DNA from: a virus
IMG/VR virus record: IMGVR_UViG_3300045988_179151
Strand: one strand, 5' to 3'
DNA length: 64,000 bases
Shown: positions 1 through 41,931 of the stretch, one piece after another
Numbering within the stretch: the stretch's first letter is position 1
Layout of the letters: every line of letters begins with the position of its first letter
Made by a program: the position numbers and the translations under genes
The notes under the pieces: model-generated
The model's input: the letters and a program-made list of their open reading frames with translations, nothing else
Told to the model about the DNA's origin: nothing
The model's database searches: none

Positions 1-70
1 ACGAGCCTAAGAAGGACGAGCCTAAGAAGGACGAGCCTAAGAAGGACGAGCCTAAGAAGGACGAGCCTAA
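1..70 (+). repeat. 15-bp tandem repeat (acgagcctaagaagg x4 plus a partial copy) encoding a (D)EPKK peptide repeat
   Basis: Direct reading: four perfect 15-nt copies at 1-60, with a degenerate fifth; frame 3 translates to EPKKD repeats. Confidence 0.85.
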
Positions 71-208
71 AACTCCAAACATCAAAGAACCAGGCCGTCA
101 AACACAACAACTTCCAAAAACAGGTACCACTACAAGCATCTTAAGCTTGATCGGTGTAGTCTTATTCGGATTGATCGGCTTTGTGTCGCTCAAAAAGAAA
201 AATAACTA
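3..208 (+). CDS. C-terminal end (5'-truncated by the window edge) of an LPXTG cell-wall-anchored surface protein
   Basis: Frame 3 reads ...EPKKDEPKTPNIKEPGRQTQQLPKTGTTTSILSLIGVVLFGLIGFVSLKKKNN*. LPKTG sortase motif, then a hydrophobic span, then a basic tail. Confidence 0.75.
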
Positions 209-220
209 GTGAAAAAAAAC

Positions 221-250
221 AACCCTGCCTAAACAAATAGGCGGGGTTTA
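221..250 (+). terminator. Rho-independent terminator-like hairpin after the LPXTG gene
   Basis: ccctgcc ... ggcgggg stem (one G.U pair) followed by tttataa. Confidence 0.45.
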
Positions 251-254
251 TAAC

Positions 255-345
255 TAAAAACACTTCAAGAACTGCACAAATAGTGATAGTTCTCCCACAA
301 ACTAGCAAATAAGACCCCGCAACGGGGTCTTGTGTTGATAAAATC
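255..345 (+). mobile_element. Noncoding remnant homologous to the 3' end / right-end region of the IS607-like TnpB at 41762-41860 (omega-RNA-scaffold-like)
   Basis: By-eye alignment: taaaaacacttcaagaactgcacaaatagtgatagttctcccacaaactagcaa-ataagaccccgcaacggggtcttgtgttgataaaatcaa versus ataaaaacacttcaagaactacacaaatggtggtagttcttccacgaattagcaacgattatccagcaacgtggtcttgtgttgataaaaagtcaa, about 85% identity over about 95 nt. No ORF here. Contains a perfect hairpin ccccg-caa-cgggg. Confidence 0.55.
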
Positions 346-363
346 AACACGTTATGTTATAAT
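335..363 (+). promoter_or_regulatory. Sigma-70-like promoter (TTGATA-17-TATAAT) for the giant surface protein gene. The -35 lies inside the IS-end-like remnant
   Basis: ttgata at 335-340, 17-nt spacer, tataat at 358-363, about 100 nt upstream of the ATG at 463. Confidence 0.5.
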
Positions 364-462
364 ACACTTATGTTCAAATCAAATGAAATAATTTTGAACT
401 TTTTACTAAAATTTATTAGAAAGGCCATAAAATATACATTATATTTTATGCGATAGGCTTCC

Positions 463-3400
463 ATGAAGTTTAAAGACAAGAAAGAATATTATTCTTTAAG
501 AAAATTTAAAGGTATCGGCCTCGCATCCGCACTTGTAGGTTTAGCATTCCTCACAGCGCCGAGTGTCTTAGCTGATGAAACCGCTGCAAATTCAAATAAC
601 AGCAACATCAGCGCAATTGCGCAGGCAGATACCGAATCTAATCAACCTACATTAGAATCAATTGCATCAACCGCATCTAAAACCCCTGTCGAACCTAAAG
701 AAGAGACTTCTAATATTGCAACAGAAAATAAATCTCAAGAGAACGTAGTCACTACTTCTACTACTAAGACGACTTCAGAAGAAACACACACTTCTGCACC
801 AACAGAAGAATCTTCAAAAGCGCCAGAAAATAAACCATCCGAAGCTTCAGAACAACCCACTACAACACAACCTGTGCGTTCTCGGTCTAAACGCGATACA
901 TCTTCACAAGAATCACCATATGTATCCGATAAAGCTAAAGAAGTTTCAAAAGAACTTAGTAATACCTTAGTCATGACTAAAGAAGATACAGCGTCTACAT
1001 CAAAGACTCTATTCAAATTAGATGCAGGTATTACACCAACTGACGATGAAAAAGCGTATAATCAAAAACTGGCACAAGCATTCGATGAATATCCAGAACT
1101 TGTTCGGTCGCAAGTACATAGTTTGACCTTCGTCCGCGAACCAAACGGTATGTACGGTTTCACTTATTCGAAATCCGGCGATGTTAATATTAATATGCAA
1201 TATTACCATCCCGAACTAACTGGTAATGAACCGGGTTCGATCAATCAATATCTCGGTGTCTTAGGGCATGAACTTGGGCACATCATGAACGCTCGTTCTT
1301 TTAGAGACAACGATACTTGGTCTTATTCTAGAGATCCTAAATACGCTGAGTTAGCAAAAGAAGTGTACGGCTCTGATGAAAATCGTTTCTTAATTAGTCG
1401 CTGGGCTTCTGATTTTGCAGATTATGTATCATATCTGAGAGGTGACTATAAACCACAAGGTTCTGCTCAAAAAATTATGACCTACATGGACGATCTCTTC
1501 AAAGGTATTTTGACGCCTCGAGAAGATCGTATTACACCTGGATTGAAGGCCGCCGTTGATTCTGTAAATGCAAGTTCAAGCAAGAAACTGGTATATGACG
1601 GTCATGTTGAATTAGTTGCCGACTATAGAAACCTTGATGAAGTTAAACAAACGGTTCAAACTCTTAATTCAAATGAAATAACTAAAGTTTCTTCTAAGTC
1701 TAGTACCCATTACAAGACGTATGGCTACAAAACATTAGTAACAACTAAGTATACTTCTGGCGGTGCCAATATTGCAGAAACTACGATAACCGATCAAGGA
1801 TCTGTTCAACAAGATTTGCCAGGTTATAACTTCGTAGACAAAGAAGTAACTCATGACGGTTTGCTCGTAGAATATAAGTATTCTCCTAAAAATACATACT
1901 CTTTAGATAATGAAAAGCTCTCAGCCGATTTAGATATCCAAACGGGCGACTCATATATTGGAGATCGCAATAAAGCTAATCTTCGCTTTACTCTAAAAGA
2001 ACAAGCGAATAATTTAAGCGTATCTTATAAGATTCAAAACTTAACAACAGGTGTTTGGCAAACACTTGACGGAACCGACAGTGAAGCGTCAGTAGATAGT
2101 ACAAATCTAAAAAATCAAGCAAAAAGATCCAACTCAGCACATAATTTAGGTTCTGTCGAAACCGGATATCATGCTACTGCCGACCTCACCTATACGCTCT
2201 TCACAGGAGCTCACGGTAATAATGTCTATCGAATGACAGCTACATTCTTTGATGGCGCTACCGAACTAGGTTCAGTATCAAAAGATTTCGTAGGTAAAGT
2301 TGCCGCTTCTAAAGAAGACGATTTACAAGATATCGAACTCAAGAGTCAAGTAGATCTACACGATGGTAAAACTATCGGCGCTATTATTAAAAATGGTAAC
2401 GTATATCGTCCCTATATCGGCGCTATCGGTCATTTAAACCCTGAAACAAAACTTGCTAACTTGGATATAGCCAAAGCTCGAGATGAAGTCTATACAAATC
2501 ACGGCGAAGTTGCAAGTGGTTCTCAAGATAATCGAGTTCGTTACACAATTCTAAACGAAAATTATCGTCTGAATGACATAGCTGCACATATTACGCCAAT
2601 ATTCAAAGATATGAAAGACGAAACAACAAATCGACCATTTGGATCTCAAGACTTAGATACTAGTGCGTCTAAAAAAGATGCATTAGGGTATACGGTAGCT
2701 ACATATAATATAAACAATCTAGGTGTAACCGGTATTACAGACACTTGGGGTACATTTTCTTATGTCGGTAACGACAAAACCTCTCGAACTGACAACGTTT
2801 CAATCAAAATAGAAATCCTTAAAGTGCTCAACGGAAAAGAAACAGTAATTGACTCTAAGATCGTTACAAAAAATGTAGAAATCGTTAATTACGACGAAAG
2901 CTTAAAACCGTTCTTCGCAGAAGACTATCAAATCGATAGACGTGCAAGCTTAGGATTGGCGACTAAAAGTGGAGATCAATATAACATCTATTATGGTACT
3001 TATGGCACTAATCTAGAATATGTTCGTGCTTGGAGTTTTGATAAGTGGAACGAGGCTTCATTCGATTCTGTCGAACGTTATCGATTATCTGAGATTGATC
3101 CAAACAAACATATCTTCTTAGAAAATATGATAAGTTTGAATATCAAGAATCCTAATGACGCAATCTTTTCTGACGCAGATTATACGGTTCATTTTGATGT
3201 ATTTAAACGTAGTGATGGAAAACCTTTAAATTTTGCAGAAATTGATCTAACATCATACGTCAATAGAACACCAATTCTAACTCCAAAAGAATACAAAGAA
3301 ACTGTTTATTGGTTAGATGAATCGGGTACACGTCATGAGATTGGCCTTGAAGTATCTAAAGCAGGTGAAGTATTTAAGACTCGTTACGCAATTCCAACAA

Positions 3401-4155
3401 ATGCTAAATCAATAGAAATTGATATTTCTGGTAAAGTTCCTGTTGACTACGGTCCAAGTTATTTAGTTCAATATATCACTGATGATACATTTGAAAAAGT
3501 TAAAAATGAGAATAGATATTTAAACTCTAACGATCCTCTAACTTATGATTCTAGGGCATACACTGTAACAGCCAGTCTTACAGATAAGATTCTCAATAAA
3601 AAACGAGACTTTACAAATCATACAATCGTTAGAAACAGTGACGTTTTAGCCCTACAAGTCAATCCTGCTGTCGCTGGAGCAAACAAAAATAATATCAGCT
3701 TGAATCAACCTTTTAGATTAACTAGTGATCAAATAGCAATGGCTAGTTCGAATGGACAATTAACAACAAATAATCTGTTAAATACAACCGATCTTCTAGA
3801 TGAGTACCCTGCTAAACGATTCATGCTTTTAGAAGACGGCGTTAAAATCTCAGACGCTGGTTGGATTAAACAATCGTCATTTGACTTTGCCGGCAAAACA
3901 TACGCCCTATATACGAGACCGTGGACCGAAAGCAAAGATCTTAATGAATCAGATTTTACTACAAATATCATTATTTCTCCGTCTTCTTCGAACTTGATTA
4001 CAAACAAGAACTATGATGCTTACACAGGTGTGATTTACAAGCTAAAAGAGGGTGTCTCACTCTCACCGACTCTCCAACCAATGTCAGCGCAACTAGTTTC
4101 TGATGCCGTCGAACGTAAGAGACTCGATCAAAAAAATCCTTTCAGTGCTCGGTGA
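463..4155 (+). CDS. N-terminal part of a giant secreted surface protein: YSIRK-type signal peptide, Ser/Thr/Glu-rich linker, HEXXH zinc-metallopeptidase-like motif. Ends prematurely at a frameshift
   Basis: MKFKDKKEYYSLRKFKGIGLASALVG...SVLA is a YSIRK-G/S signal. GVLGHELGHIMN is an HEXXH motif. No anchor in this ORF; it overlaps the next ORF in a different frame. Confidence 0.7.
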   Translation: MKFKDKKEYYSLRKFKGIGLASALVGLAFLTAPSVLADETAANSNNSNISAIAQADTESNQPTLESIASTASKTPVEPKEETSNIATENKSQENVVTTSTTKTTSEETHTSAPTEESSKAPENKPSEASEQPTTTQPVRSRSKRDTSSQESPYVSDKAKEVSKELSNTLVMTKEDTASTSKTLFKLDAGITPTDDEKAYNQKLAQAFDEYPELVRSQVHSLTFVREPNGMYGFTYSKSGDVNINMQYYHPELTGNEPGSINQYLGVLGHELGHIMNARSFRDNDTWSYSRDPKYAELAKEVYGSDENRFLISRWASDFADYVSYLRGDYKPQGSAQKIMTYMDDLFKGILTPREDRITPGLKAAVDSVNASSSKKLVYDGHVELVADYRNLDEVKQTVQTLNSNEITKVSSKSSTHYKTYGYKTLVTTKYTSGGANIAETTITDQGSVQQDLPGYNFVDKEVTHDGLLVEYKYSPKNTYSLDNEKLSADLDIQTGDSYIGDRNKANLRFTLKEQANNLSVSYKIQNLTTGVWQTLDGTDSEASVDSTNLKNQAKRSNSAHNLGSVETGYHATADLTYTLFTGAHGNNVYRMTATFFDGATELGSVSKDFVGKVAASKEDDLQDIELKSQVDLHDGKTIGAIIKNGNVYRPYIGAIGHLNPETKLANLDIAKARDEVYTNHGEVASGSQDNRVRYTILNENYRLNDIAAHITPIFKDMKDETTNRPFGSQDLDTSASKKDALGYTVATYNINNLGVTGITDTWGTFSYVGNDKTSRTDNVSIKIEILKVLNGKETVIDSKIVTKNVEIVNYDESLKPFFAEDYQIDRRASLGLATKSGDQYNIYYGTYGTNLEYVRAWSFDKWNEASFDSVERYRLSEIDPNKHIFLENMISLNIKNPNDAIFSDADYTVHFDVFKRSDGKPLNFAEIDLTSYVNRTPILTPKEYKETVYWLDESGTRHEIGLEVSKAGEVFKTRYAIPTNAKSIEIDISGKVPVDYGPSYLVQYITDDTFEKVKNENRYLNSNDPLTYDSRAYTVTASLTDKILNKKRDFTNHTIVRNSDVLALQVNPAVAGANKNNISLNQPFRLTSDQIAMASSNGQLTTNNLLNTTDLLDEYPAKRFMLLEDGVKISDAGWIKQSSFDFAGKTYALYTRPWTESKDLNESDFTTNIIISPSSSNLITNKNYDAYTGVIYKLKEGVSLSPTLQPMSAQLVSDAVERKRLDQKNPFSAR

Positions 4156-7100
4156 AACCTCTAACAACGATCAAACCGACACTGTCCGACTAAACGGTGT
4201 CAAATTAGATTTGAAAACTAAGAGAAGTCTTGAATTTACAGTAAATCAGACAGTCGAAGATTCTGAAATTGTTACACGAGATTATGCTAAATCTGCGGGC
4301 AAACAAGTAGATATTGTAACAACCCTATCAAACGGTGCTCAAACAACAAGTCCAACTCTTGAAGTTATTCAAAAACTACCAGTCGGTGATTTAAGTTACA
4401 CATTCGTAGATCCTAAAGAAAACAATAACTATAATATCTTCTACACCTCTGACACAGATGTTACTGCCTCTAGTAACTGGGTATCAGCTAAACCTACTAC
4501 AGTGACTGGTTTAAAATGGGTTCGTAAGTCTGCGCTAAATACGGGTACAATTGACAAAGTGGCTTACACAATCCAAGTTGCCAATGATAAATCTAAAGTT
4601 ACAAAATCCGTTGCATCTGCCACCATGCTGAATGGCGGATTAGTTGGTTCAATCAATGATGTGGTTATTAGAAATGATCAAGCATATCGTACTTTGAAAA
4701 TCCAAAAACAAACGTATACAGCTGGCGGACATTTAGTAGAGAATATCACTACAAATATTCTGTCTCTGCCAGTAGGAGAGGAAGTACCATATAGAGGTAC
4801 TGTTTTAGATTATCTCTTAAATTCGTATGTCGCAGGTTCTGCAACTCAAACGAGCACAGATTATACTTTACCTAAACCAAAAATTACTTGGGACGGTTTG
4901 ACATTTACAGTACCTGATAGAGATACCACTATGGTGTTTAAATTTGTTCAACCCGCCGAACCTCAAGAAGCGCGACGTACTTACACAACAACTTGGGAAA
5001 ACGGATATGTAGAACCAGACATCCAAGAACTTCAAAACCTATTTGGAAATGTTAGAAGTTACGAGTTCCTACCAAACGAATCAACACAAGCCGTTAAGAA
5101 GTTCAACTTAACTTACATTAGCGGTCAAAAAGGTATCGGATATGTAGATATTAAGATTGAACCAAAACGTGAAAAAGTTGTAGGTACCCATAAAGGTATT
5201 ACTTATCAAGGTGATGATTCCAAAGACCTTGGATATGAAACAACTATAAACGGCATTAACCCTTCTTATGAAAAAGTAACCAGTTATCCAGTAGATTCAA
5301 CTGGCACATTTAGCGAAGTTGTCTCAAAAGAAAACGAAGTAGCCGCAAAAGACGCCATTATCGTCCGTGGTACAAAACCAACAGTCAAGACGGATACGAT
5401 TCCAAAAGGCAAACGTTACGAAGCGGACCCTGATCAACCAGTTAAAGGTAAAGAAACTGTTATCGAGGGTCAAGATGGTGTTAAAACATCAACAACTCGT
5501 TATACCGTAAATCCAACTACGGGTGATATTACATCAAACACAACTGTTGAAAACACAGCTAAAGTTGATACCGTAGTCAAAGTAGGTAACAAAGAGATTC
5601 TTACTGAACCGATTTCGATTGTGACAAAATATAAAGCAGAACCAACTCTCGAAAAAGATGTTCAAGAAACTGAAACTACTGGTCAAGCTGGTAGTCGCGA
5701 AATCACAGTAACTTACGACGTAAACGCCGCGGATGGTACTCTATCGAATCCAACTAGAACAACTCGAGATGCTGAACCTATGGTTCCGACGATCGTCAAA
5801 GTTGGTTCTGTACATAAAGATGTCGTTGAAACTGCAATTACAACCAAGTATATTTCAGACGATACCAAAATCCATGACTCTCGTGAAGAGCTTGTTGCCG
5901 GTTCTAAAGGTGTTAAAACAACAACTACAACTTATGAAGTTGATGAAAATACAGGCGCTACACATTCACCTACAACGCAAGTAAACGACCAACCGATGGT
6001 CCAAAAAGTTGTCAAAATTGGTACAAAACCAACGGTAAATGTTCAAACAGTAGCCATTACGACAAAATACATCTTTGATGACAAACTAGCTTACGGTCAA
6101 CGTATTGTGGAAGAAAACGGTTCAGAAGGACGAATCGTAACAACAACGACTTACACAATGAATGAATCTGATGGTACAACAACCGCTGATACTCCAGATA
6201 TTCAAACGGTAGAAATGAAGCAACGTGTGATTCGCGTTGGTATCAAACCAACTGTAGAAGAAACGCCAATTAACTTCAATACATTCTATGAACCCGACCC
6301 AGAAGCTGAAAAAGACAGTCGAGTTGATAAGGTTGCCGGTAAAGTTGGTAAAGTTACAACAACTACAACTTACACCTACGATGAAACTACTGGCGTAGTT
6401 ACTCCAAACACACCAACTACGGTTAAAGAAGATGCCGTAGACAGAATCGTCAAAGTTGGCACTCGTCCAAACGTTGTTGAAACGCCAATTGACTTTACAA
6501 CGACTTATGAAGCTGATCCTGAGTCTCCAAGAGACATTAAGACAGACAAAGTTATTGGTAAAAAAGGTACAACTACTGTTACAACAACGTACTCAGTTGA
6601 TCCGAAAACGGGTGTTGTTACTGAAAATCCAGCAACAACTACGGTAAAAGACCCAGTGAACGCCATCATCAAGGTTGGTACAAAATCAACAGAAGTAGTT
6701 GAAGTATTACCATCACCTAAACGTTTTGTTAAAGATAGTACTCGTCCAAAAGATGAAGAACCTGTAACAGAACAAGGTAGACCTGGAAGCAAGACAACTG
6801 TTACAACATATACCGTTGATCCACGAACTGGCGTTACAACTCCAAATGAACAACCACCTGTAACTGTAGACCCTACAGACACTATTGTAAGAGTTCCTGC
6901 GGGCGACAAGATTGTAGAAGATAAAATTACAATCACAACTCGTTACATTGAAGATCCAACCAACAATCCAAGCTATGAAGAAGAAATCAGCAAGGGTTCT
7001 GAAGGTAAGATCGTAACAACGACAACTTACAATGTTGATGAACATACAGGCGTTGTAACAGAAAGTGGAACTAACAGAGTTCAGACTGATATGGTTCAAC

Positions 7101-8863
7101 GTGTTGTCAGAAAAGGCACAAAACCTAAAGTTGAAGAAACACCAATTCATTTCACAACTCGATATGAAAAAGACGGTACTAAACCTGAAGGTGAAAGAAC
7201 TGATTTCGTGATCGGTGTAAATGGTAAAGTAGTAACAACTACAACTTACACGCTAAATCCTACAACCGGTCAAATTACAGAAAACCCATCAACTTCTGAA
7301 ACCATCAACCCTACTACACACGTAGTAAAAGTCGGTGCCAAAGATAAAATTGAAGTAACACCAATTGAATTGGTTACTCGCTATGAGCGTGATGATGAAC
7401 TAGTCGTTGGTAAATCAACAATTGTAAATGCCGGTAAAGCGGGCTCTATCACAACAACTACTACTTATGACGTGAACCCTACAACAGGTAATGTGACTGA
7501 GTCTGGCAAGACTTCTGTGACAGATAAAATGATTGAAAAAGTAGTCAAAGTAGGTACAAAACCAACGGTTGATGTGGAAACCCGTCCAATTAATATTCGA
7601 TATGTTCCAAAAGAAGATGTTTCTTACGGTACACGAACCGTTAAATCAGAAGGTTCTGCAACCGTAATTACATCAACTACTAACTATACATTGAATCCAG
7701 ATGGTTCAACTACAGCAAATACTCCAATTGTAACAACAACAGATGGTAGCGATAGAGTTATCGAAGTAGGTGTTCAAACTTCAAGTACGACCATTGCATT
7801 GCCATATGATGTCGAAACGGAATACGATTCAAGTTTAGAAGCTGGCCAAACAGTTGTTGACCAAAATGGTGAAAATGGAAGTAAGACAATTACTACAACG
7901 TATTCATTGAATGAGTCAACTGGTGAAGTAACCTCAAACACGACTGAAACTTCGGTTAAACCAAAACCTAAGAAAATTCGTATCGGTACCGGGGTACGCT
8001 CTACAAATGTAAGAAATATTGTTCATGATGTACCATTTGAAACTGAAACTATCGAAGACCGATTCTTACCAAAAGGTAAAGAGATCGTAGAACATGAAGG
8101 AACGCTTGGTAAAGACATCGAAACAATCGTAGAACAATTGTTCAACGGTGAAGTCAAGTCTTCTGAAAGTTCTACTCGCCGCGTATTAGATCCCGTTAAA
8201 CGTGTAGTTCGAGTGGGTACTTATGAATTTGCAAAACCAACTGATGCTCCAATCGTAGAAATCCCTGAATTCAACGGTGGTGTCAACCCAGTTGATCCAC
8301 CAGTTGTAGAGATTCCTGAATATACGGATCCAATCGGAGGCAACGGTTTAGATGGTGAAGGAAATATTATCCCCGCGCCAATCGTAGAAATCCCTGAATT
8401 CAACGGTGGTGTCAACCCGATTGATGCACCCGTTGTAGATATCCCTGAATATACGGGTCAAATCGGGGGCAACGGCTTAGATGGGGAAGGTAACATCATC
8501 CCAGCTCCTATTGTAGAAATCCCTGAATTCAACGGTGGTGTCAATCCAATTGATCCACCAGTTGTAGAAGTTCCTGAATATACAGGTCCGATCAACAGTA
8601 ACGATTCAGATGGTAACGGCAACATCATTCCCGCTCCAATTGTAGATGTCCCTGAATTCACAGGAGATGTCAATCCAATTGATGCGCCAGTTGTAAAGAT
8701 CCCTGAATCCAACAATGATACTGAAAACAATTCTCTCGTTAAAGATGAAAAGAATACATTACCAAACACAGGTAGTCATGAATCATACATTCTTAGTCTT
8801 TTAGGTGGATTGTCATTAGCATCCTTACTAGGATTTATCTCTAAAAAACGTAAAAAACAATAA
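4103..8863 (+). CDS. C-terminal part of the same giant surface protein: many ~85-90 aa G5-like repeats (...VKVGTKPTV...TTTYT.NP.TG..T), 4 x 43-aa tandem repeats, LPNTG anchor
   Basis: No signal peptide. Ends ...LPNTGSHESYILSLLGGLSLASLLGFISKKRKKQ*. Deleting one A from the A7 run at 4130-4136 joins the upstream frame (..LDQK) to ILSVLGETS.., giving one ORF 463..8863. Confidence 0.7.
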   Translation: MPSNVRDSIKKILSVLGETSNNDQTDTVRLNGVKLDLKTKRSLEFTVNQTVEDSEIVTRDYAKSAGKQVDIVTTLSNGAQTTSPTLEVIQKLPVGDLSYTFVDPKENNNYNIFYTSDTDVTASSNWVSAKPTTVTGLKWVRKSALNTGTIDKVAYTIQVANDKSKVTKSVASATMLNGGLVGSINDVVIRNDQAYRTLKIQKQTYTAGGHLVENITTNILSLPVGEEVPYRGTVLDYLLNSYVAGSATQTSTDYTLPKPKITWDGLTFTVPDRDTTMVFKFVQPAEPQEARRTYTTTWENGYVEPDIQELQNLFGNVRSYEFLPNESTQAVKKFNLTYISGQKGIGYVDIKIEPKREKVVGTHKGITYQGDDSKDLGYETTINGINPSYEKVTSYPVDSTGTFSEVVSKENEVAAKDAIIVRGTKPTVKTDTIPKGKRYEADPDQPVKGKETVIEGQDGVKTSTTRYTVNPTTGDITSNTTVENTAKVDTVVKVGNKEILTEPISIVTKYKAEPTLEKDVQETETTGQAGSREITVTYDVNAADGTLSNPTRTTRDAEPMVPTIVKVGSVHKDVVETAITTKYISDDTKIHDSREELVAGSKGVKTTTTTYEVDENTGATHSPTTQVNDQPMVQKVVKIGTKPTVNVQTVAITTKYIFDDKLAYGQRIVEENGSEGRIVTTTTYTMNESDGTTTADTPDIQTVEMKQRVIRVGIKPTVEETPINFNTFYEPDPEAEKDSRVDKVAGKVGKVTTTTTYTYDETTGVVTPNTPTTVKEDAVDRIVKVGTRPNVVETPIDFTTTYEADPESPRDIKTDKVIGKKGTTTVTTTYSVDPKTGVVTENPATTTVKDPVNAIIKVGTKSTEVVEVLPSPKRFVKDSTRPKDEEPVTEQGRPGSKTTVTTYTVDPRTGVTTPNEQPPVTVDPTDTIVRVPAGDKIVEDKITITTRYIEDPTNNPSYEEEISKGSEGKIVTTTTYNVDEHTGVVTESGTNRVQTDMVQRVVRKGTKPKVEETPIHFTTRYEKDGTKPEGERTDFVIGVNGKVVTTTTYTLNPTTGQITENPSTSETINPTTHVVKVGAKDKIEVTPIELVTRYERDDELVVGKSTIVNAGKAGSITTTTTYDVNPTTGNVTESGKTSVTDKMIEKVVKVGTKPTVDVETRPINIRYVPKEDVSYGTRTVKSEGSATVITSTTNYTLNPDGSTTANTPIVTTTDGSDRVIEVGVQTSSTTIALPYDVETEYDSSLEAGQTVVDQNGENGSKTITTTYSLNESTGEVTSNTTETSVKPKPKKIRIGTGVRSTNVRNIVHDVPFETETIEDRFLPKGKEIVEHEGTLGKDIETIVEQLFNGEVKSSESSTRRVLDPVKRVVRVGTYEFAKPTDAPIVEIPEFNGGVNPVDPPVVEIPEYTDPIGGNGLDGEGNIIPAPIVEIPEFNGGVNPIDAPVVDIPEYTGQIGGNGLDGEGNIIPAPIVEIPEFNGGVNPIDPPVVEVPEYTGPINSNDSDGNGNIIPAPIVDVPEFTGDVNPIDAPVVKIPESNNDTENNSLVKDEKNTLPNTGSHESYILSLLGGLSLASLLGFISKKRKKQ
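8249..8715 (+). repeat. 129-bp tandem repeat (~3.6 copies) encoding PIVEIPEFNGGVNPIDPPVVEIPEYTGPIGGNGLDGEGNII units
   Basis: Copies start at 8249, 8378, 8507 and 8636 with near-identical DNA (ccaatcgtagaaatccctgaattcaacggtggtgtcaa...). Confidence 0.85.
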
Positions 8864-10038: not shown

Positions 10039-11376
10039 ATGCATAAACGCAAGTTTACGGTTTTCACCCAATTACATGAAGAAAACAATGCCGATTTAAT
10101 TGAATATTTTGATGATCGTCGTGAACGTCAGTCCCAAATTATGCGTAAGACGTTCCAAGTTATTAAAAACACGGAAACGTTTGAAAAATCTAAATATAAT
10201 ACGTATCTTCAAAATAAATATGGAATTACATGTCGAATGGCAAATTCTATTATTTCTGATGCTCAAGGTCGATTAAATGCTTTGAAAGAATTAAAGGTTT
10301 TCGAAAAAGCACAAATCGAACAAAAAATTGGACATTTAGAAAAGAAAGTGCTTCCGAAGCTTATTTCAAAACGTGACGATTGCATTGCTCAATTAAAGGT
10401 TAATCCAAAAGGTTCACCCATTCGACTTCGAAATATTCGACGTAAGATTGTCGCTAAAAAGAATAAACTAAATAGACTGAAACAAAAGCTAGATAATGTG
10501 ACCTATCAGATTGAAACAGGACGTTTAAAATTATGTTTCGGAACTAAATATTTATTGAAGCGTGATTATAGACGTTTTGTTGAACAACGAGATAGTCAAA
10601 TGTCTTTCGTTGGTTCAAAGTCAGAACCCGCTCAAAACCAAATGCTTCAATTAAGCTATAATCCGAAAAACAACCAGTTTAACATCAAATTACGAAAAGA
10701 CTTCGATGGTTATAAAAATGCTAATAAAGACGATAAATACATTTACGGACGCGTTTATTTCAGACATCATAAGTCTGAATTGGTTTCAATTTTACGTCAA
10801 GGTTATAGTCCTCTCAGCTACAAGATTATTAAAAAGGGAAATCGTTTTTATCTATATTGTACCTTTGAGATCCATGTCGAAGATGATGAATTCTTGACAC
10901 GCTCGTCTTATGGAACAATTGGGCTTGACTTTAACAAAGGTTTCGTGACGTTGTCAGAAACCAATGAGTATGGTCATCTTCTACGAACGCAAGTCTTACC
11001 TTATCGCTTTAAATCTGGTTCTAAGACAAGAACCGATCTTCAAAAGTTAGTGAATGATGTTGTCGATTTAGCACTTCAAACAGGTAAAGATATTTGTATT
11101 GAAGATTTGAATTTCAAAAAGAAAAAGGCTAAAACCGAATCAAGACAAGGTTGTAAATATAACGAAATGTTACATTCTTTAACCTATCGTCAGTTTAGCC
11201 ATTTTATCGAAGGCATTGCCTTTCGAAATCTAGTTTATGTAAGAAAAGTCAACCCCGCGTGGACGTCTTGGTTGGCGAAAGAACTTTATTGTCCACGAAT
11301 GAAACTCAATGTTCACGTCGGAGCTTCATTCGTTATTGCGAGACGTGGACAAGGTTTTAAAGACGCCTTTAAATGA
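10039..11376 (+). CDS. tnpB: TnpB-like protein (445 aa) with RuvC-I/II motifs, but catalytic Asp replaced in RuvC-III and zinc finger lost (putative nuclease-dead, TldR-like)
   Basis: IGLDFN is the RuvC-I Asp motif; CIEDLNF is the RuvC-II Glu motif. C-terminus NPAWTSWLAKELYCPRMKLNVHVGASFVIARRG aligns to the canonical NPAYTSQ.C..CG...DADVNAAINIARRG with D->H and no CxxC pairs. Confidence 0.6.
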   Translation: MHKRKFTVFTQLHEENNADLIEYFDDRRERQSQIMRKTFQVIKNTETFEKSKYNTYLQNKYGITCRMANSIISDAQGRLNALKELKVFEKAQIEQKIGHLEKKVLPKLISKRDDCIAQLKVNPKGSPIRLRNIRRKIVAKKNKLNRLKQKLDNVTYQIETGRLKLCFGTKYLLKRDYRRFVEQRDSQMSFVGSKSEPAQNQMLQLSYNPKNNQFNIKLRKDFDGYKNANKDDKYIYGRVYFRHHKSELVSILRQGYSPLSYKIIKKGNRFYLYCTFEIHVEDDEFLTRSSYGTIGLDFNKGFVTLSETNEYGHLLRTQVLPYRFKSGSKTRTDLQKLVNDVVDLALQTGKDICIEDLNFKKKKAKTESRQGCKYNEMLHSLTYRQFSHFIEGIAFRNLVYVRKVNPAWTSWLAKELYCPRMKLNVHVGASFVIARRGQGFKDAFK

Positions 11377-11600
11377 GTTCTTTAAACAATCAGCCTTATA
11401 AAGATGTATGAACGCAAGACAGTTTGGCATCTCCCTTTAAGGCCTTGTTCAATTAGAAACTTCAATGACAAATCTTATTGTATGGCATTTGTCGAAATGA
11501 GATGAATTGAAGCGGAATAGGTTAACGGTTAGACCTTGAATTAAAAAATTCTAAAATTGATCTCAAAGGTGACTATTACTTTTTAATACTTTTGAGTAAC
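11377..11600 (+). ncRNA. Putative omega-RNA (reRNA) scaffold of TnpB-like copy 1
   Basis: About 190 nt right after the stop are ~96% identical to the matching region of copy 2. This is more conserved than the proteins (~90%). Ends ...ctaaaattgatc and then diverges. Confidence 0.5.
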
Positions 11601-11801
11601 CGTTCTAAAAACGCTGTCGTTCTCGACCGAGCAATCCTTACGATTGTGAGTTGAAATATCCTTTCTATATTCGGTCTGACGCACTAACTACTCAACTCAG
11701 ACCTAAACACTACAGCGAAACTCGTTGTAGTGCTTTTTTTATGGGCAACGTTCCACGAACGTTGCCGAAATCTATCGAAATATCACTAGAAAGAAGACAC
11801 T

Positions 11802-16075: not shown

Positions 16076-18505
16076 ATGCGTACTTTACTACTACTCCGCG
16101 GTGCACCAGGCGCCGGAAAATCAACTTGGATTGAAGAAAACAATTTACAAAATTACACTCTTGAGGCGGATAAATTCCGACAACTCACATCAAATCCCGT
16201 TCTTGGATTAAACGGCGATCTCCACATTACGCAAGACAACGACCGACTAGCATGGGATTTACTGTTCCAAGCGCTTGAATCACGCATGCAACGCGGTGAT
16301 TTCACTATCGTTGACGCGACACACTCAAATGAAGCCATGTTCAACAAATATCGAGGGCTCATCGAAAAATATCGATATAAGATTTATTACAAAACTTTTG
16401 ACGTTGATCTCGAAGAACTTGAACGTCGCAATTTAACGCGCCCTGAGCACAAACGTGTTCCTCTTGACGCTGTCCGCCGTGTCAAAGCCTTAGTTGATAA
16501 CACAAAACCAACATCATCAGCAACAGAAATCAACGACATTTCTGAAATCATCAATTACTGGACAGACGATTTAACCAACAAATACGAAAACGTCAAAATC
16601 ATCGGTGACCTCCAAGGTTGTTACTCCGTGCTCAAAGAAGCAATTGGCTCTGAACTAAATCCAAACACCAAATATGTCTTCGCTGGGGATATTCTCGACC
16701 GAGGCATTGAAAACAAAGAAGTCTTAGATTTCATGCTATCCATCTATACAAAGCCAAACGTTGTCTTCGTCGAAGGAAACCACGACACACATTTGCGTAA
16801 TTGGGCAATGGACACATGGCCATTGAAGAAATCAGGTGAACCAAATATTCCTCGTGAATTCAACTTTAAAACTCTTCCTCAATTATTGGATCAAAAGAAA
16901 AAATCAGAATTTACGATTGGAACTCATGAGGTTGATGACGCTATCTATTACACTGTAAATGACAAACTAACAACCATCCCGGTTTGGACGTCCTACGATG
17001 AATCCATTGTCACAGAACCACATCTCAAATACAAAGATGGCACTCTCTGGCTAAAACCATATAAAACATCACGGACCGAAATCGACACCGGAATTCCGGT
17101 TAATCGAATCGATTCCGAACAACTAAAATCAAAAGTTCGACAATTCGTACGTCGATTCCGACTAGCTTACGCTTTTGAATTCCACGATCAAAAATACTTT
17201 GTCAACCATGGTGGTATTTCCGCTCTTCCAAACATGGTCACCATTTCAGGTGAACAACTCATCAAAGGTGTCGGAGCCTATGAATATCAAATCGATGAAG
17301 CTTGGGAACAAAGCTATCTCGCTAATAAAACGCAAGGATTTATCCAAGTGCACGGTCATCGCCACACAGAATCCACTGAACACTCTATCTGTCTTGAAGA
17401 TGATGTTGAATATGGCGGTAATCTCGTCATTCTTGAAATTTCAAAAGACGGTCATGAAGTTAAAAAATTCAAAAATAAAGTTTTCAAAGTACCAACTGAA
17501 GATGACTTTGAACGTGAACGTAAAGCCTGGATCGAAGACACACAAAACCCAATCACAAATAAAATGATCCACGATAAATACATCAAAGTCAAAGACCTTG
17601 ATGATAACCTTATGTCGTTGAACTTCAGCGAAAAAGCTTTCTACAAAAAGAAATGGACGGAAAACACCATTACAGCTCGTGGATTATTCGTCGACAAAAC
17701 GTCAGGTGATATCAAAATCCGTTCCTATAACAAATTCTTCAACCTCAACGAAAATGCAGAAACATCCGTCCGAGAATTGAAAAAGAAAGTCGCCTATCCA
17801 TTGATGGCTTATGAGAAGTATAACGGATTCTTAGGAATTGCCTCATCAGTAAACAGCGTGTTCACATTAGCTTCAAAATCAACAACAAGTGGACCTTTCG
17901 TAGAATACTTCCAAGAAATCTTTAACGATTTGACTGACTCTGAAAAAGAACAACTAAAACAATTATCTGAAAAATATCATTGTTCGTTCACATTTGAAGT
18001 GATGCACATTGATGACCGACATATCATTGACTTTAGTCAAAACAGACTCGTCATCCTAGATGCTATTCCTAATTCGTATAACATTAACGGAATCACTGTT
18101 GATGCCACATTCTCCGAAAACGTTCTCAGTCAATTAAACATTGAATCTGATTTCTTCTCACGCAAAGAACTCGTCAAAGAATTCACCTCAATGGAAGACC
18201 TCATGCGTTACATCAATGAACACAAGCATGACCGTACATCTGAAGGGTTGGTTATTGAGGATCAAAACGGTTATATGTTCAAAGTAAAATATGAATATTA
18301 CACAGAACTTAAACGATTGCGTGGTCTCCGAGACGTGGTGAAAGCGTATTACCATACAAAAAACGTTACGCAATACGCCAAAAATGCCACTCAAGTCGCA
18401 TTCGCGGCTTGGTGTAAACAACAACCGTTTGAAAAATTAAAAGAATGTCACATCATTGACTTATTTAAAGAATACGAAGAACAACTCGGCACGAAAGTGC
18501 TATAA
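16076..18505 (+). CDS. pnkp: Polynucleotide kinase-phosphatase (Pnkp-like RNA repair enzyme): P-loop kinase, calcineurin-like phosphoesterase and ligase-like nucleotidyltransferase domains
   Basis: GAPGAGKST is Walker A. IGDLQGC / AGDILDRG / EGNHD are metallophosphatase motifs (the first His is replaced by Gln). AYEKYNGFLG is a K-x-NG motif-I-like ligase element. 809 aa with the bacterial Pnkp architecture. RBS cgaaaggata. Confidence 0.6.
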   Translation: MRTLLLLRGAPGAGKSTWIEENNLQNYTLEADKFRQLTSNPVLGLNGDLHITQDNDRLAWDLLFQALESRMQRGDFTIVDATHSNEAMFNKYRGLIEKYRYKIYYKTFDVDLEELERRNLTRPEHKRVPLDAVRRVKALVDNTKPTSSATEINDISEIINYWTDDLTNKYENVKIIGDLQGCYSVLKEAIGSELNPNTKYVFAGDILDRGIENKEVLDFMLSIYTKPNVVFVEGNHDTHLRNWAMDTWPLKKSGEPNIPREFNFKTLPQLLDQKKKSEFTIGTHEVDDAIYYTVNDKLTTIPVWTSYDESIVTEPHLKYKDGTLWLKPYKTSRTEIDTGIPVNRIDSEQLKSKVRQFVRRFRLAYAFEFHDQKYFVNHGGISALPNMVTISGEQLIKGVGAYEYQIDEAWEQSYLANKTQGFIQVHGHRHTESTEHSICLEDDVEYGGNLVILEISKDGHEVKKFKNKVFKVPTEDDFERERKAWIEDTQNPITNKMIHDKYIKVKDLDDNLMSLNFSEKAFYKKKWTENTITARGLFVDKTSGDIKIRSYNKFFNLNENAETSVRELKKKVAYPLMAYEKYNGFLGIASSVNSVFTLASKSTTSGPFVEYFQEIFNDLTDSEKEQLKQLSEKYHCSFTFEVMHIDDRHIIDFSQNRLVILDAIPNSYNINGITVDATFSENVLSQLNIESDFFSRKELVKEFTSMEDLMRYINEHKHDRTSEGLVIEDQNGYMFKVKYEYYTELKRLRGLRDVVKAYYHTKNVTQYAKNATQVAFAAWCKQQPFEKLKECHIIDLFKEYEEQLGTKVL

Positions 18506-22294: not shown

Positions 22295-22337
22295 TGACGT
22301 TCTAGCGGTGTAATAGGTTGAAGATAATACTACCGTT

Positions 22338-22561
22338 ACTCAAAAGTACTAAAATGTAATAATAATAACTTTTAAGATCAATTTTAGAATTTTTCAATTC
22401 AAGGTCTAACGGTTAACCTATTCCACTTCAATTCATCTCATTTCGACTAATGCCAGGCAATAAGACTTGTCATTGAAGTTTCTAATTGAACAAGGCCTTA
22501 AAGGGAGATGCCAAACTGTCTTGCGTTCATACATCTTTATAAGGCTGATTGTTTAAAGAAC
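22338..22561 (-). ncRNA. Putative omega-RNA scaffold of TnpB-like copy 2
   Basis: The reverse complement of 22372-22561 matches 11377-11566 with about 7 mismatches. The sequence diverges beyond ...ctaaaattgatc. Confidence 0.5.
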
Positions 22562-23899
22562 TCATTTAAAGGCGTCTTTAAAACCTTGTCCACGTCTCGC
22601 AATAACGAATGAAGCTCCGACGTGAACATTGAGTTTCATTCGTGGACAATAATGTTTTTTCGCCAACCAAGACGTCCACGCAGGGTTGACTTTTCTTACA
22701 TAAACTAGATTTCGAAAAGCAATGTTTTCGACAACATTAGAAAATTGACGATAGGCTAAAGAGTGTAACATTTCGTTGTATTTACGACCTTGTCTTGATT
22801 CTGTTTTAGCCTTCTTCTTTTTAAAATTCAAATCTTCAATGCAAATATCTTTACCTGTTTGAAGAGCAAGTTCGACAATCTCATTCACTAACTTTTGAAG
22901 ATCCGTTGTTGTCTTAGAACCAGCTTTAAAACGATACGGCAAAACTTGCGTTCGTAGAAGATGACCATACTCATTGGTTTCTGACAAGGTGACGAAACCT
23001 TTGTTGAAATCAAGACCAATTGTTCCATAAGACGAACGTGTTAAAAAATCATCATCTTCGACATGAATCTCAAAAGTGCAATATAGATAAAAACGATTTC
23101 GCTTTTTAATAATTTTGTAACTAAGAGGGCTATAACCTTGTCGTAAAATTGAAACAAGTTTAGATTTGTGATGTCGGAAATAGACGCGCCCGTAAACGTA
23201 TTTATCTTCTTTACTAGCATTTTTGTAATCTCCGAAATCTTTTCGCAATTTAATGTCAAATTGATTGTTTTTCGGATTATAACTTAATTGGAGCATATGA
23301 TTTTGTGCTTTTTCGGATTTTGAACCAACGAAAGACATTTGACTGTCTCGTTGTTCAACAAAACGTTTATAATTGCGCTTCAATAAATATTTAGTGCCAA
23401 AACACAATTTTAAATGTCCAAACTCAATTTGATAAATTATGTTTTCTAATTTTTGTTTTAGTCGATTTAGTTTATTCTTTTTATAGACGATTTTGTGTCG
23501 AACATTTCGAAGTCGAACTGGTGAACCTTTTGAATTAGATTTTAACTGAGCAATGTAATCATCGCGTTTTAGAATAAGCTTTGGAAGCACTTTCTTTTCT
23601 AAATGTTCAATCTTTTGTTCAAGCTGCTTTTTTTCGAAAACCTTTAATTCTTTCAAAGCATTTAATCGACCTTGAGCATCAGAAATAATAGAATTTGCCA
23701 TTCGACATGTAATTCCATATTTATTTTGAAGATACGTATTATAACTTGATTTATCAAACTCATCTGCGTTTTTAATTAGATGAAACGTCTCACGCATGGA
23801 TTTCGCATAACATTCACGACGATCATCAAAATATTCAATTAAATCAGCATTGTTTTTCTCATGCAATTGAGTGAAAACCGTAAACTTACGTTTATGCAT
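22562..23899 (-). CDS. tnpB: TnpB-like protein, paralog of 10039..11376 (~90% aa identity), same D->H RuvC-III change and no zinc finger
   Basis: C-terminus NPAWTSWLAKKHYCPRMKLNVHVGASFVIARRGQGFKDAFK. Substitutions cluster in the N-terminal half. Confidence 0.6.
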   Translation of the reverse strand: MHKRKFTVFTQLHEKNNADLIEYFDDRRECYAKSMRETFHLIKNADEFDKSSYNTYLQNKYGITCRMANSIISDAQGRLNALKELKVFEKKQLEQKIEHLEKKVLPKLILKRDDYIAQLKSNSKGSPVRLRNVRHKIVYKKNKLNRLKQKLENIIYQIEFGHLKLCFGTKYLLKRNYKRFVEQRDSQMSFVGSKSEKAQNHMLQLSYNPKNNQFDIKLRKDFGDYKNASKEDKYVYGRVYFRHHKSKLVSILRQGYSPLSYKIIKKRNRFYLYCTFEIHVEDDDFLTRSSYGTIGLDFNKGFVTLSETNEYGHLLRTQVLPYRFKAGSKTTTDLQKLVNEIVELALQTGKDICIEDLNFKKKKAKTESRQGRKYNEMLHSLAYRQFSNVVENIAFRNLVYVRKVNPAWTSWLAKKHYCPRMKLNVHVGASFVIARRGQGFKDAFK

Positions 23900-34730: not shown

Positions 34731-34814
34731 GCGCTTATGGCGAAACTGGCAGACGCGCAAGACTCAACGTCTTGTATCCTTTTGGACGTCTAGGTTCGAA
34801 TCCTAGTAAGCGCC
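34731..34814 (+). tRNA. tRNA-Leu (anticodon CAA), type II with a long variable arm
   Basis: Acceptor gcgctta/taagcgc; anticodon stem caaga/tcttg with loop ctCAAcg; T-arm ctagg-ttcgaat-cctag; long variable arm; no encoded CCA. Confidence 0.6.
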
Positions 34815-39064: not shown

Positions 39065-39642
39065 CATGTTCTTAGAAGAAAAAAACTATTAAACACGCAG
39101 ATTCACCTCGATTGATGAGTCTGCGTCCATGGTTGTTCTCAAAATCACTACGAACAACTAATAAATATACAAAAACTGTTAAAAAATCATATATCTACGT
39201 TGATGTTCGTTCTATTGAAGAATCAATAAGACACGGATACATTTATCTGAACCAAACCGGGGATCAATCATTTAATTTTGTTTTCAAAATTGGAAATGGA
39301 ATCTACCAACAATATGGATTTCACGATGGTTCTATCGCAATTCCACTCCCAGATATCTATATTGAAGGCGCTATTGATTTATATTACAGCGATGGCGCGT
39401 ACGAATGCAGACCAGACTTTATCACAATTGGCTCTCCGTTTCTACAACAAATCCCTCTTAGCAACATCTATTACGACTCAATTACTCCGTCATACGCGCC
39501 ACGAGAAAGCGACGGCTTCAAGATCAACTATTCAAACATCTGTTACGGTAATTCCTTCCGTAAGCTTGTTGGTCCGGTTCAAACACCACACGAAGCCATT
39601 AACAAAATTGCATCTATCATTGTTAACTGCTTCTATCAATAG
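39065..39642 (+). pseudogene. N-terminal portion of a family C gene, frameshifted in an A7 run (39080-39086) and truncated by the IS607-like insertion
   Basis: MFLEEKNY* as read. With A6 it reads MFLEEKTIKHADSPRLMSLRPWLF..., matching paralogs MFLEKNTIRKPDSPRYQSTKPWLF. The ORF stops at the IS boundary. Confidence 0.55.
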
Positions 39643-39728
39643 CCGTACATATTGAATTTTATCCATATTTATTGACATTCAATTCATCGTATGATATACT
39701 AAAATAACAAATAAAAAGGAGTACTGTT

Positions 39729-40346
39729 ATGCGAAAATATATGAAATTAAGTCAATATGCAAAAAATTTAGGAATTCACTATAAAACAGCGTGGCGACAC
39801 TGGCATGATAACAAGCTCAATGGATATCAAGATCCCGTAACAGGCACTATTTATGTGTTAGATCAAGATACGAATGTGCCAATAGGTTCTCAAATAAGAG
39901 CGATTTTATATGCACGTGTTTCAAGTACAACTAACAAAGCTTCTTTAGACGGTCAATTGGATAGAATGCGTCAATTTGCCGCTGCAAAAGGATACACTGT
40001 TGTCGATGAACGAAAAGAAATTGCATCTGGTTTAAATGAAAACAGAAAACAATTATTACCGCTTCTTTCTCGACAAGATTATGATGTTTTAATTGTAGAA
40101 CATAAAGACAGATTGAGTCGATTTGGTTCCACATATATTGAACAAGCTTTGATTAATAATGGTGTAAAATTAGAAATTATTAATAAAATTGAAAATAAAG
40201 ATAATGAACTTATTGACGATTTTATTTCTATTATTACAAGCTTTTGTGGTCGCATTTATGGACGCAATCGCAAGACTAAAACACAAGAAATCATAAACCA
40301 ACTAGAATTGACACCTGAAAGGACAAAAGATGAAACTAGCGTATAA
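39729..40346 (+). CDS. tnpA: IS607-family TnpA: MerR-like HTH plus serine recombinase/resolvase catalytic domain
   Basis: MKLSQYAKNLGIHYKTAWRHW is the HTH. AILYARVSSTTNKASLDGQLDRMRQFA is the Ser-recombinase active-site region. Confidence 0.7.
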   Translation: MRKYMKLSQYAKNLGIHYKTAWRHWHDNKLNGYQDPVTGTIYVLDQDTNVPIGSQIRAILYARVSSTTNKASLDGQLDRMRQFAAAKGYTVVDERKEIASGLNENRKQLLPLLSRQDYDVLIVEHKDRLSRFGSTYIEQALINNGVKLEIINKIENKDNELIDDFISIITSFCGRIYGRNRKTKTQEIINQLELTPERTKDETSV

Positions 40347-41931
40347 AATCGCATTTCCTGATGAGTTAATAGACACATATGATTTCTTACAAAAAGAATT
40401 CAATCGCGTCTTATCTGATGAATATATGCGTGAATCTATTTTATCAATTGACAATGAGCTTCATCCTGGCAAATATTGGCCACTATTGCGTGATCTCATA
40501 GGTCAAGATACTCAATATAAATGGAAAACAGATAAACGCTTTCCGTCACCATCTTGGTATTTTTGTGCGTTTGCTGAACAAATTCGTCAAATTCACAAAT
40601 CTCAAAAAGAACAACTAGCTCTTTATGACGCCTTACAACGCTTTGATAATAACGATAACGTCGAATTTTATCAATATTGTATGAATAATAGTATTCCATT
40701 TAATAAAGCAAAAGTTAAAAATCTAAAGCGGTGCGATGAACGCCCAGAATTACCGTATTCAGCTACCTTTGTCCTTGATTTTGCCTTTATCAACAGTCAA
40801 GCCGCTAAAATGGTAGATAATACATTCCACTATGCGATTTTCAACGAAAACAATAAACTCATATGGAATCAGTTACCAATTATCTTTCATCAATCAAGTA
40901 AATATCAACCAGGAATGCGTGTAAGTAAACCTAGATTTTCAAAAGATGAAGACGGTAATTATTACGGAGTAGTCTCTTTTGATTTTGAAGAAAGTGTCAC
41001 ATTTGGTGAAAATATTGCTGCTATTGATTTAGGTAAAATTAATTTATATACATTCGCATACATTCGTCCAGATGGTACTTATAGTGACAATTATTTCATT
41101 CATTCAAAAATGATTGAACGGTTAAAACAAAAACTTGAAACATTATATAATGAAAAAGCAATTTTAATCGAAAAAAATAAGCATGTTGACGAACTTTTCA
41201 AGTATTCTGACTATATTCCTGATGCAAGCCTTAAAAAATGGATACTGCGTCAAGGCAAAATAGAACGTTTATCAACAAAAATAACAGCAATTAAAGATGC
41301 TATCAGTGCTGAAATGAGTGCCGAAATAGTTGAATTGTGTCAAAAACACAATTGTTCTACTCTTTTTATGGAAAATCTTAGTTGGTTAGAATCCGTAGGA
41401 GGTAAGTGGAATCATAGTGTTCAACAAGATACCATTGCCTTAAAATGTGCACAAAACGGTATTGCTGTATATAAAGTAAACGCAAAAAATACCAGCAAAG
41501 CACATCCTATTACAGGCGAATTAGGCAAAGAATTAGGCCGAAATATCATTTGGTCAAATGGCGACATACTTGATAGAGATTTTGTTTCTTGTTTAAACCA
41601 AATTCAACGAAAAGGAAAACGTCGTACATCTCATCGACGAATTGAGACAAAACAAGGAATTCAATTAAAATCTCTCCGAGATAAACATCAGCCAACACCA
41701 AAACGCACTAAGCGACAAACTAGTCGACGTTATGAAAATCTAAAAAAACTAGAAAACTTAAAAAATAAAAACACTTCAAGAACTACACAAATGGTGGTAG
41801 TTCTTCCACGAATTAGCAACGATTATCCAGCAACGTGGTCTTGTGTTGATAAAAAGTCAATACAAGAGGGTAACAATTGCATGAGACGTACAGATGTCTA
41901 TAAAAAGTCATACATGTACATCTGCAATTGA
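40330..41931 (+). CDS. tnpB: IS607-family TnpB-like RuvC nuclease (533 aa), no zinc finger
   Basis: IAAIDLGKINLYTF is RuvC-I; TLFMENLSW is RuvC-II; GDILDRDFVSCLNQIQRKG is RuvC-III-like. Its 3' end is homologous to the noncoding region at 255-345. Confidence 0.6.
   Translation: MKLAYKIAFPDELIDTYDFLQKEFNRVLSDEYMRESILSIDNELHPGKYWPLLRDLIGQDTQYKWKTDKRFPSPSWYFCAFAEQIRQIHKSQKEQLALYDALQRFDNNDNVEFYQYCMNNSIPFNKAKVKNLKRCDERPELPYSATFVLDFAFINSQAAKMVDNTFHYAIFNENNKLIWNQLPIIFHQSSKYQPGMRVSKPRFSKDEDGNYYGVVSFDFEESVTFGENIAAIDLGKINLYTFAYIRPDGTYSDNYFIHSKMIERLKQKLETLYNEKAILIEKNKHVDELFKYSDYIPDASLKKWILRQGKIERLSTKITAIKDAISAEMSAEIVELCQKHNCSTLFMENLSWLESVGGKWNHSVQQDTIALKCAQNGIAVYKVNAKNTSKAHPITGELGKELGRNIIWSNGDILDRDFVSCLNQIQRKGKRRTSHRRIETKQGIQLKSLRDKHQPTPKRTKRQTSRRYENLKKLENLKNKNTSRTTQMVVVLPRISNDYPATWSCVDKKSIQEGNNCMRRTDVYKKSYMYICN

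Follow-up and report, generated by a model that had tools for sequence, protein, structure and literature searches.

The window analysed here, a 64,000-nt stretch of DNA from an IMG/VR virus record, opens with the end of an LPXTG-protein gene followed by the gene of a giant surface adhesin, and the intergenic stretch between them, read from the LPXTG stop codon (207–209) to the ATG at 463, contains a segment resembling part of an IS607-type tnpB located about 40 kb away. How did a piece of a mobile element come to lie in the adhesin promoter, and does it act there as the end of an insertion sequence, as a regulatory RNA, or as neither? On the evidence presented below, we put at about 0.75 the probability that an internal IS fragment has replaced an existing −35 hexamer, being an ordinary mobile-element relic and no new regulatory RNA.

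Homology between the adhesin promoter segment and an IS607-family element

Comparison of 200–470 with the whole window by blastn gave, as the best non-self match, an ungapped alignment of 252–343 with 41763–41854 (92 nt, 84.8% identity, E 7.6e-25), the next-best match within the window having an E value of 0.004. A profile of the family 3′ region likewise aligned 255–345 with profile positions 4–96 of 171 (nhmmer, E 7e-21), and, when a 2-nt loop indel was allowed, the similarity ran on to 350 via the 3′ arm of a conserved hairpin. Thus, the similarity described in an earlier note on this DNA held in the BLASTN comparison that it had proposed, and the homology supports the origin that it had assigned to the segment, namely the 3′/omega-RNA region of an IS607-type tnpB. 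The matched stretch is not, however, the last ~100 nt of tnpB as had been stated, because the reading frame reaches 41931 and the IS end is at 41936; the match falls short of the stop codon by 77 nt and of the IS end by 82 nt. Chance similarity in AT-rich intergenic DNA, for which the low G+C content of the window (38%) is the whole case, has a negligible probability in view of both E values and of a degenerate 39-base pattern, derived from both copies, that is expected 0.00 times by chance in shuffled windows. In 530 kb of related loci, nhmmer found no further solo copy, all other 44 instances being full length. The segment and the hairpin preceding it are as follows.

252–350, + strand: solo fragment corresponding to the omega-RNA 5′ block (helices 1–3), equivalent to tnpB codons about 479–512 (blastn, nhmmer, alignments)
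222–250, + strand: terminator-like hairpin of the upstream LPXTG gene, CCCTGCC...GGCGGGG and then TTTAT (sequence)

The resident element and its putative omega-RNA scaffold

The element that carries the second copy of the segment is complete, and its parts are listed here.

39616–41936, + strand: complete IS607-family element of 2.3 kb, of the same family as the fragment (comparison of copies with different flanks)
39729–40346, + strand: tnpA, IS607-type serine recombinase (NCBIfam transpos_IS607, Pfam Resolvase)
40330–41931, + strand: divergent TnpB-like gene of 533 aa, overlapping tnpA (sub-threshold matches, PDB matches, conserved residues)
41763–41936, + strand: putative full omega-RNA scaffold of four helices, with a putative guide from 41937 (RNAalifold, flank divergence, fold z)

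By comparing differently flanked copies, the left end was placed at ATCATTGTTAAC... (window ~39616) and the right end at ...TGCAATTGAACCAT, that is, the terminus ...TTGAACCAT at 41936, which at least 12 differently flanked copies share and which follows the tnpB stop codon by 5 nt. Beyond both ends the copies diverge completely, and the recurrence of the same ends in differing flanking DNA indicates that the element is mobile. The tnpA product scored 160.3 bits with NCBIfam transpos_IS607 (cut-off 110) and also matched Pfam Resolvase. The 533-aa TnpB-like protein reached 42.7 bits with guided_TnpB (cut-off 100), its matches to OrfB_IS605 and Cas12f TNB were also sub-threshold, and PDB chains of Cas12f/TnpB were matched weakly (E 4e-5 to 5e-4). 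Among metagenome proteins, 96 relatives of it were found (27–92% identity, mostly 516–550 aa), and conservation of D233, E348, and D417 in at least 97% of the sequences across 91 relatives fits an intact RuvC site.

Omega RNAs have a published layout (PMC8612924): a scaffold overlapping with the 3′ end of tnpB extends as far as the transposon end, where the variable flank begins. Here, the differently flanked copies all end at ...TTGAACCAT, which sets the scaffold at ~41763–41936, and the flanks diverge directly after ACCAT at its 3′ end. Nucleotide conservation across the subfamilies jumps at 41762, stays at 0.74–0.86 to ~41866, and is ~0.6 thereafter. RNAalifold, applied to a non-redundant set of 17 copies representing four or five subfamilies, gave a consensus of four helices with compensatory double changes at seven pairs: helix 1, a hairpin; helix 2, a long-range pairing of CCACG with CGTGG that is invariant in 17 of 17 sequences; helix 3, CTTGTGTTGA.../...TCAAYACAAG; and helix 4, CAATTGC/GCAATTG, just ahead of the terminal AACCAT. 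The resident copy alone folds into the consensus structure (z = −5.1). Its anatomy therefore suggests that 41763–41936 is an omega RNA. An Rfam scan of 150–520 and 41500–42100 (E ≤ 10) returned sub-threshold noise only, with neither RAGATH-18 nor IS605-orfB types, so that the analysis yields, as a by-product, a covariation-supported four-helix omega-RNA model without an Rfam match.

The window also contains two genes, unrelated to the IS607 one, for 445-aa TnpB-like proteins (10039–11376, + strand; 22562–23899, − strand), which gave sub-threshold TnpB matches only. Each is trailed by a full-length Rfam IS605-orfB-I RNA (11393–11606 and 22329–22545; 189–195 bits), an omega-RNA type other than the IS607 one.

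What the promoter copy keeps and lacks

Compared with the consensus scaffold, the solo fragment contains three local structures.

268–293, + strand: helix 1, largely preserved except for the basal A267/C294 pair and an apical pair (consensus, fold, covariance alignment)
311–331, + strand: new local 9-bp hairpin AAGACCCCG-CAA-CGGGGTCTT, replacing the long-range helix 2 (consensus, fold)
332–350, + strand: helix 3 hairpin GTGTTGAT-AAA-ATCAACAC, without two basal pairs (consensus, fold)

The covariance model scored the promoter copy at 74.9 bits and the resident copy at 191.2 bits. In helices 1–3, 6 of 28 pairs are non-canonical in the solo copy and none in the resident one; helix 2 has lost two of its five pairs there, and the solo copy differs at 4 of the 54 positions that are invariant in the 17 IS copies. 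Two of its substitutions, G299A and T325G, each break one pair of the invariant helix 2. The earlier note had taken the perfect small hairpin at 311–331 as a kept feature, but in the 17 family members CGTGG at this site pairs with the distal CCACG, and the hairpin is a novelty of the promoter copy, because G299A and T325G, together with other substitutions, create it. The 101-nt solo piece folds as three hairpins (z = −7.4 against shuffled sequence), and three substitutions strengthen the local hairpin at 311–331. Such hairpin-improving substitutions and the low z value could reflect selection on structure.

The 3′ part of the scaffold is missing. The solo piece comprises 54% of the scaffold (46% missing) and has no helix 4, no scaffold end, and no guide; it fails to reach the IS terminus by 72–86 nt, and the terminal ...CAATTG...TTGAACCAT is absent. 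A model of the 3′ block alone found no such block in 345–450. The covariance model could be forced to align a diverged 3′ half within 352–430 to TTTTGAACTTT, but this added only ~2 bits, and this candidate was rejected. The DNA 3′ of 350 is native promoter DNA, common to the alleles without the fragment, and contains no guide segment. On the upstream side, a consensus scan of the + strand found no promoter-like site ahead of the fragment. Lacking helix 4, a guide, and the ends of both scaffold and IS, and with helix 2 broken, the segment is neither a right-end remnant nor a usable omega RNA. The term "solo right-end remnant" used earlier thus does not apply to a piece that is internal to the element and lacks the terminus ...TTGAACCAT with the last 72–86 nt.

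Probable replacement of the −35 hexamer in one group of promoter alleles

A consensus scan of the intergenic stretch identified a predicted promoter, TTGATA-17-TATAAT, with a TG extended −10 and 11 of 12 consensus matches.

335–340, + strand: −35 hexamer TTGATA, IS-derived; TTGGTA stands there in the alleles without the fragment (scan, allele alignment)
355–363, + strand: native extended −10 TGTTATAAT, with TATAAT at 358–363 (conserved with and without the fragment)
463–8863, + strand: giant YSIRK/G5/LPXTG surface-protein gene, split into ORFs 463–4155 and 4103–8863 (ORFs, domains, orthologues)
Junction k-mers of the fragment/promoter alleles: GGGGTTTATAACTAAAAACACTTC, TGTTGCAAACACTTCAAG, ATCAACACGTTATGTTATAAT

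Both hexamers thus lie where the earlier note had put them, TTGATA inside the fragment and TATAAT in native DNA, as confirmed by the scan and the alleles; the −35 hexamer occupies the 5′ arm and loop of the helix 3 hairpin. That this promoter is the one used is predicted from its sequence. The predicted transcription start is at ~370; since the fragment lies upstream of it, the fragment should be outside the adhesin mRNA.

The history of the −35 hexamer was read from four loci with an intact adhesin gene (L049–L052), 91–93% identical to the window gene. The allele in L049 has the identical fragment and promoter (98.9% identity over window 258–700), and its left flank is unrelated, consisting of a truncated LPXTG gene and 357 nt that gave no match among the sequences compared; the hairpin at 222–250 forms the left flank of the fragment in the window allele only. 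Within this 357-nt flank (L049 2216–2244, − strand), a perfect match to the consensus promoter, TTGACA-17-TATAAT with TG, was observed, pointing away from the adhesin gene. In L050, L051, and L052, the LPXTG gene is followed by a different, stronger terminator (13-bp stem plus T8), no fragment, TTGGTA-17-TGTTATAAT (10 of 12 consensus matches with TG), and then the 5′ UTR. Homology between the window and these alleles resumes at ~352. By direct count, 335–350 matches the IS copies at 15 of 16 positions and the native sequence at 11 of 16, which argues that the −35 hexamer of the window allele is IS-derived; the presence of TTGGTA at the same position in L050–L052 indicates that the −35 was replaced in register and not created. 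We infer that the fragment-less allele is ancestral, given that a mobile element is the donor of the fragment and that terminator and promoter simply adjoin where the fragment is absent. The paralogous surface-protein genes (L045–L048, ~55% identity) share the YSIRK signal peptide, and their upstream regions are unrelated, with neither the fragment nor a region homologous to that upstream of the adhesin gene.

The claim that the IS remnant supplies the −35 box is therefore correct in that TTGATA is physically IS-derived, but creation of the promoter by the fragment is not supported, since by consensus a promoter with TTGGTA pre-existed (L050–L052). The replacement raises the −35 match from 4 of 6 (TTGGTA) to 5 of 6 (TTGATA). 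Promoters with a TGn extended −10 are less dependent on the −35. The effect of the fragment on the predicted promoter is likely to be at most modest.

Besides replacement of a −35 hexamer by relic DNA, three functional roles of the fragment were considered. The fragment hairpins (311–331 and 332–350, followed by a T-rich stretch) might stop transcripts reading through from the LPXTG gene upstream, or insulate against them; the terminator of that gene itself has a poor T-run here. The strong 9-bp GC hairpin at 311–331, a terminator-like score of 331–351 plus TTATGTTATA in the scan, and the occurrence of the 13-bp stem plus T8 terminator instead of the fragment in the fragment-less alleles are all consistent with this role, but a canonical free U-tract is absent from both hairpins, and L049 retains the fragment in spite of its truncated LPXTG gene. 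Insulation as the explanation of the fragment is accordingly improbable in our estimate.

The earlier suggestion of a solo right-end IS607 remnant, with the adhesin gene driven from a classic IS-end hybrid promoter, would account for TTGATA in IS DNA, TATAAT in native DNA, and the 17-nt spacing between them. This arrangement would, however, require the terminus: the fragment stops 86 nt short of it and has no 3′-block or terminus sequence, and the homologous hexamer lies 91–96 nt inside the right end in the IS copies, which have no usable −10 downstream of it. Moreover, the fragment-less alleles already hold TTGGTA with the same spacing and the same extended −10. The suggestion is decidedly improbable on these grounds.

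The other earlier proposal was a domesticated omega-RNA-like regulatory RNA. We considered it in the form of a module whose RNA (252–350) would bind the TnpB-like protein, the product of a gene 40 kb distant, and would act as decoy, regulator, or TldR-like guide in the control of a phase-variable adhesin. Helices 1 and 3 are largely kept, the fold is strong (z = −7.4), the extent of the fragment is that of the most conserved RNA block, and a cognate IS copy is present in the same window. Against such a role, the piece (54% of the scaffold, 6 of 28 pairs broken, among them pairs of the invariant helix 2) lacks the guide-adjacent 3′ domain and the guide, has no promoter-like site of its own, and is upstream of the predicted start; it is also missing from the paralogue promoters and from three of the alleles in a comparison of five in all, three of which are near-identical to one another. 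In addition, the protein family keeps the RuvC D/E/D residues, unlike the nuclease-dead TldR (bioRxiv 10.1101/2023.11.30.569447). A regulatory RNA at this site is very improbable.

Possible origin of the fragment

Collectively, it may be concluded that window 252–350 is a strain-variable, ~100-bp internal fragment of an IS607-family element, probably left as a relic patch between the LPXTG and giant adhesin genes. In the IS, the C-terminus of TnpB and the putative omega-RNA scaffold are encoded by one and the same region, and the fragment corresponds to the most conserved 5′ block (helices 1–3) of it. Its right junction is in register with the native promoter, so that the IS-derived TTGATA takes the place of TTGGTA 17 bp upstream of TGTTATAAT, and its hairpins may provide some extra insulation from upstream read-through.

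The fragment may have originated from a full insertion by two deletions or, possibly, by one-step capture at short similarities, such as occur at the junctions (A-rich on the left, TTGNTAAA on the right). No intermediate allele with a full IS beside the promoter was found among the fetched loci. Deletion by recombination between the two 92-nt copies would be unlikely, because their longest perfect run is only ~19–20 nt. The most conserved RNA block (41762–41866) has its edges only a few nucleotides from the two ends of the fragment, a coincidence that is unexpected under random breakage, and the window and L049 alleles differ in their left flanks, whose junctions with the fragment are no more than ~6 nt apart. 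For these two reasons, a small probability is kept for non-random capture or a retained structural role. In its most specific form, helices 1–3 would have entered as one unit, perhaps through RNA-templated or template-switch repair, and would have been kept as a TnpB-docking or hairpin module by the phase-variable adhesin gene, moving between strains that differ in the left flank; we regard this as highly improbable.

Under the relic interpretation, the locus adds one more case to the promoters already known to contain IS debris. Such debris can exchange a −35 box without any guide-RNA function, and an omega-RNA-like match should accordingly be read with caution, as it is not always a regulatory RNA.

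Comparison with known systems

In IS hybrid promoters (IS1, IS2, IS256, IS257, and others), an outward −35 in the IS terminus is combined with a native −10. The adhesin promoter resembles them in having a mobile-element-derived −35-like hexamer 17 bp from a native −10 before a host gene, but differs in that the donor piece is internal and not a terminus and in that an existing −35 was replaced.

Omega RNAs (reRNAs) of TnpB are known from IS200/IS605 (Karvelis 2021, PMC8612924) and IS607 (PMC11061315). The resident 41763–41936 conforms to them in overlapping the tnpB 3′ end and stopping at the IS right end, with the variable flank then serving as the putative guide, whereas the solo piece is without 46% of the scaffold, the terminus, and the guide, and has helix 2 broken. 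TldR proteins (bioRxiv 10.1101/2023.11.30.569447) are TnpB-like, nuclease-dead repressors of promoters that are targeted by their adjacent guide RNAs. TnpB-derived sequence at the promoter of a surface-structure gene is what the present locus has in common with them. TldR guide RNAs, however, are complete, with a guide, and are encoded beside the gene of a RuvC-dead protein; the present case differs because the protein keeps D/E/D and the RNA piece is truncated and guideless, and this piece also lies 40 kb from the TnpB-like gene. Non-autonomous IS200/IS605 derivatives (PATE/MITE-like) are similarly protein-less IS DNA with omega-RNA sequence, but they are multi-copy and have both ends, unlike the solo piece, which has neither end and is single-copy in all DNA examined.

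Distribution and variation of the TnpB-like family

A pattern scan of JGI metagenomes gave 32 loci, all 32 of which were linked to a tnpB-like gene, and one 290-kb contig (BNJU01005177.1) contains four copies of the element. No GTDB representative genome matched the 39-base degenerate scaffold pattern, and tblastn found no match to the TnpB-like protein in plasmid and phage collections; with these three collections scanned as well, the family has so far been found in metagenome assemblies only. A 155-aa protein encoded nearby likewise had no relative among the GTDB representative genomes. Its members (40330–41931 and P0001–P0096) have no cysteines at the zinc-finger CxxC positions of TnpB/Cas12f, residues 385–415 of the window protein reading NAKNTSKAHPITGELGK.... 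The analysis thus delivers, as a second by-product, a previously unannotated IS607-type TnpB-like family of 516–550 aa with defined ends and without the usual zinc-finger cysteines.

Two subfamilies deviate in their organization. A 64%-identity subfamily (L006–L009, L014, L023–L033, L041, L044) usually lacks an adjacent tnpA, which one copy (L028) has, and shows many different flanks after ...TTGAACCAT; its tnpA-less copies may be mobilised in trans. A 57%-identity subfamily (531 aa, no tnpA; L010 and L011, ~1–6974) was seen at a fixed site in two samples, amid YSIRK/G5/DUF285 surface-protein genes. The window copy itself sits in the 3′ end of a 176-aa ORF (39112–39642), whose last nine codons and stop are supplied by the IS left end ATCATTGTTAACTGCTTCTATCAATAG (39616).

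The adhesin gene and other features of the window

The two ORFs of the adhesin gene fall into one 90% cluster with proteins of 2820–2880 aa, and the split between them is due to an A7 tract at 4130–4136; in four orthologues the tract is A6 and one uninterrupted ORF of that length is present. The A7 tract could be an OFF state produced by slipped-strand phase variation, a frameshift that has become fixed, or an assembly error in the homopolymer. At the start of the window (1–70), a perfect 15-nt tandem repeat, ACGAGCCTAAGAAGG, is present in 4.7 copies and gives the upstream LPXTG protein a C-terminal KKDEP-type repeat; in the source scaffold, a run of N directly precedes this tandem repeat. The window is identical to part of the ENA scaffold ZHAN15-1_SAMEA2738165 scaffold_17.

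Farther downstream, a tRNA-Leu(CAA) (34731–34814) precedes a block in which small ORFs lie on the same strand and which includes a D5-type primase/helicase (45357–47066) and also the IS607 copy. The block (34731–58000) looks like an integrated island or satellite; the 452-aa ORF beside the tRNA-Leu(CAA) gave no integrase match. The 809-aa product of another gene (16076–18505) combines a kinase (AAA_33), a phosphoesterase, and a T4-type RNA ligase domain, a predicted architecture that is that of a Pnkp-like RNA repair enzyme.
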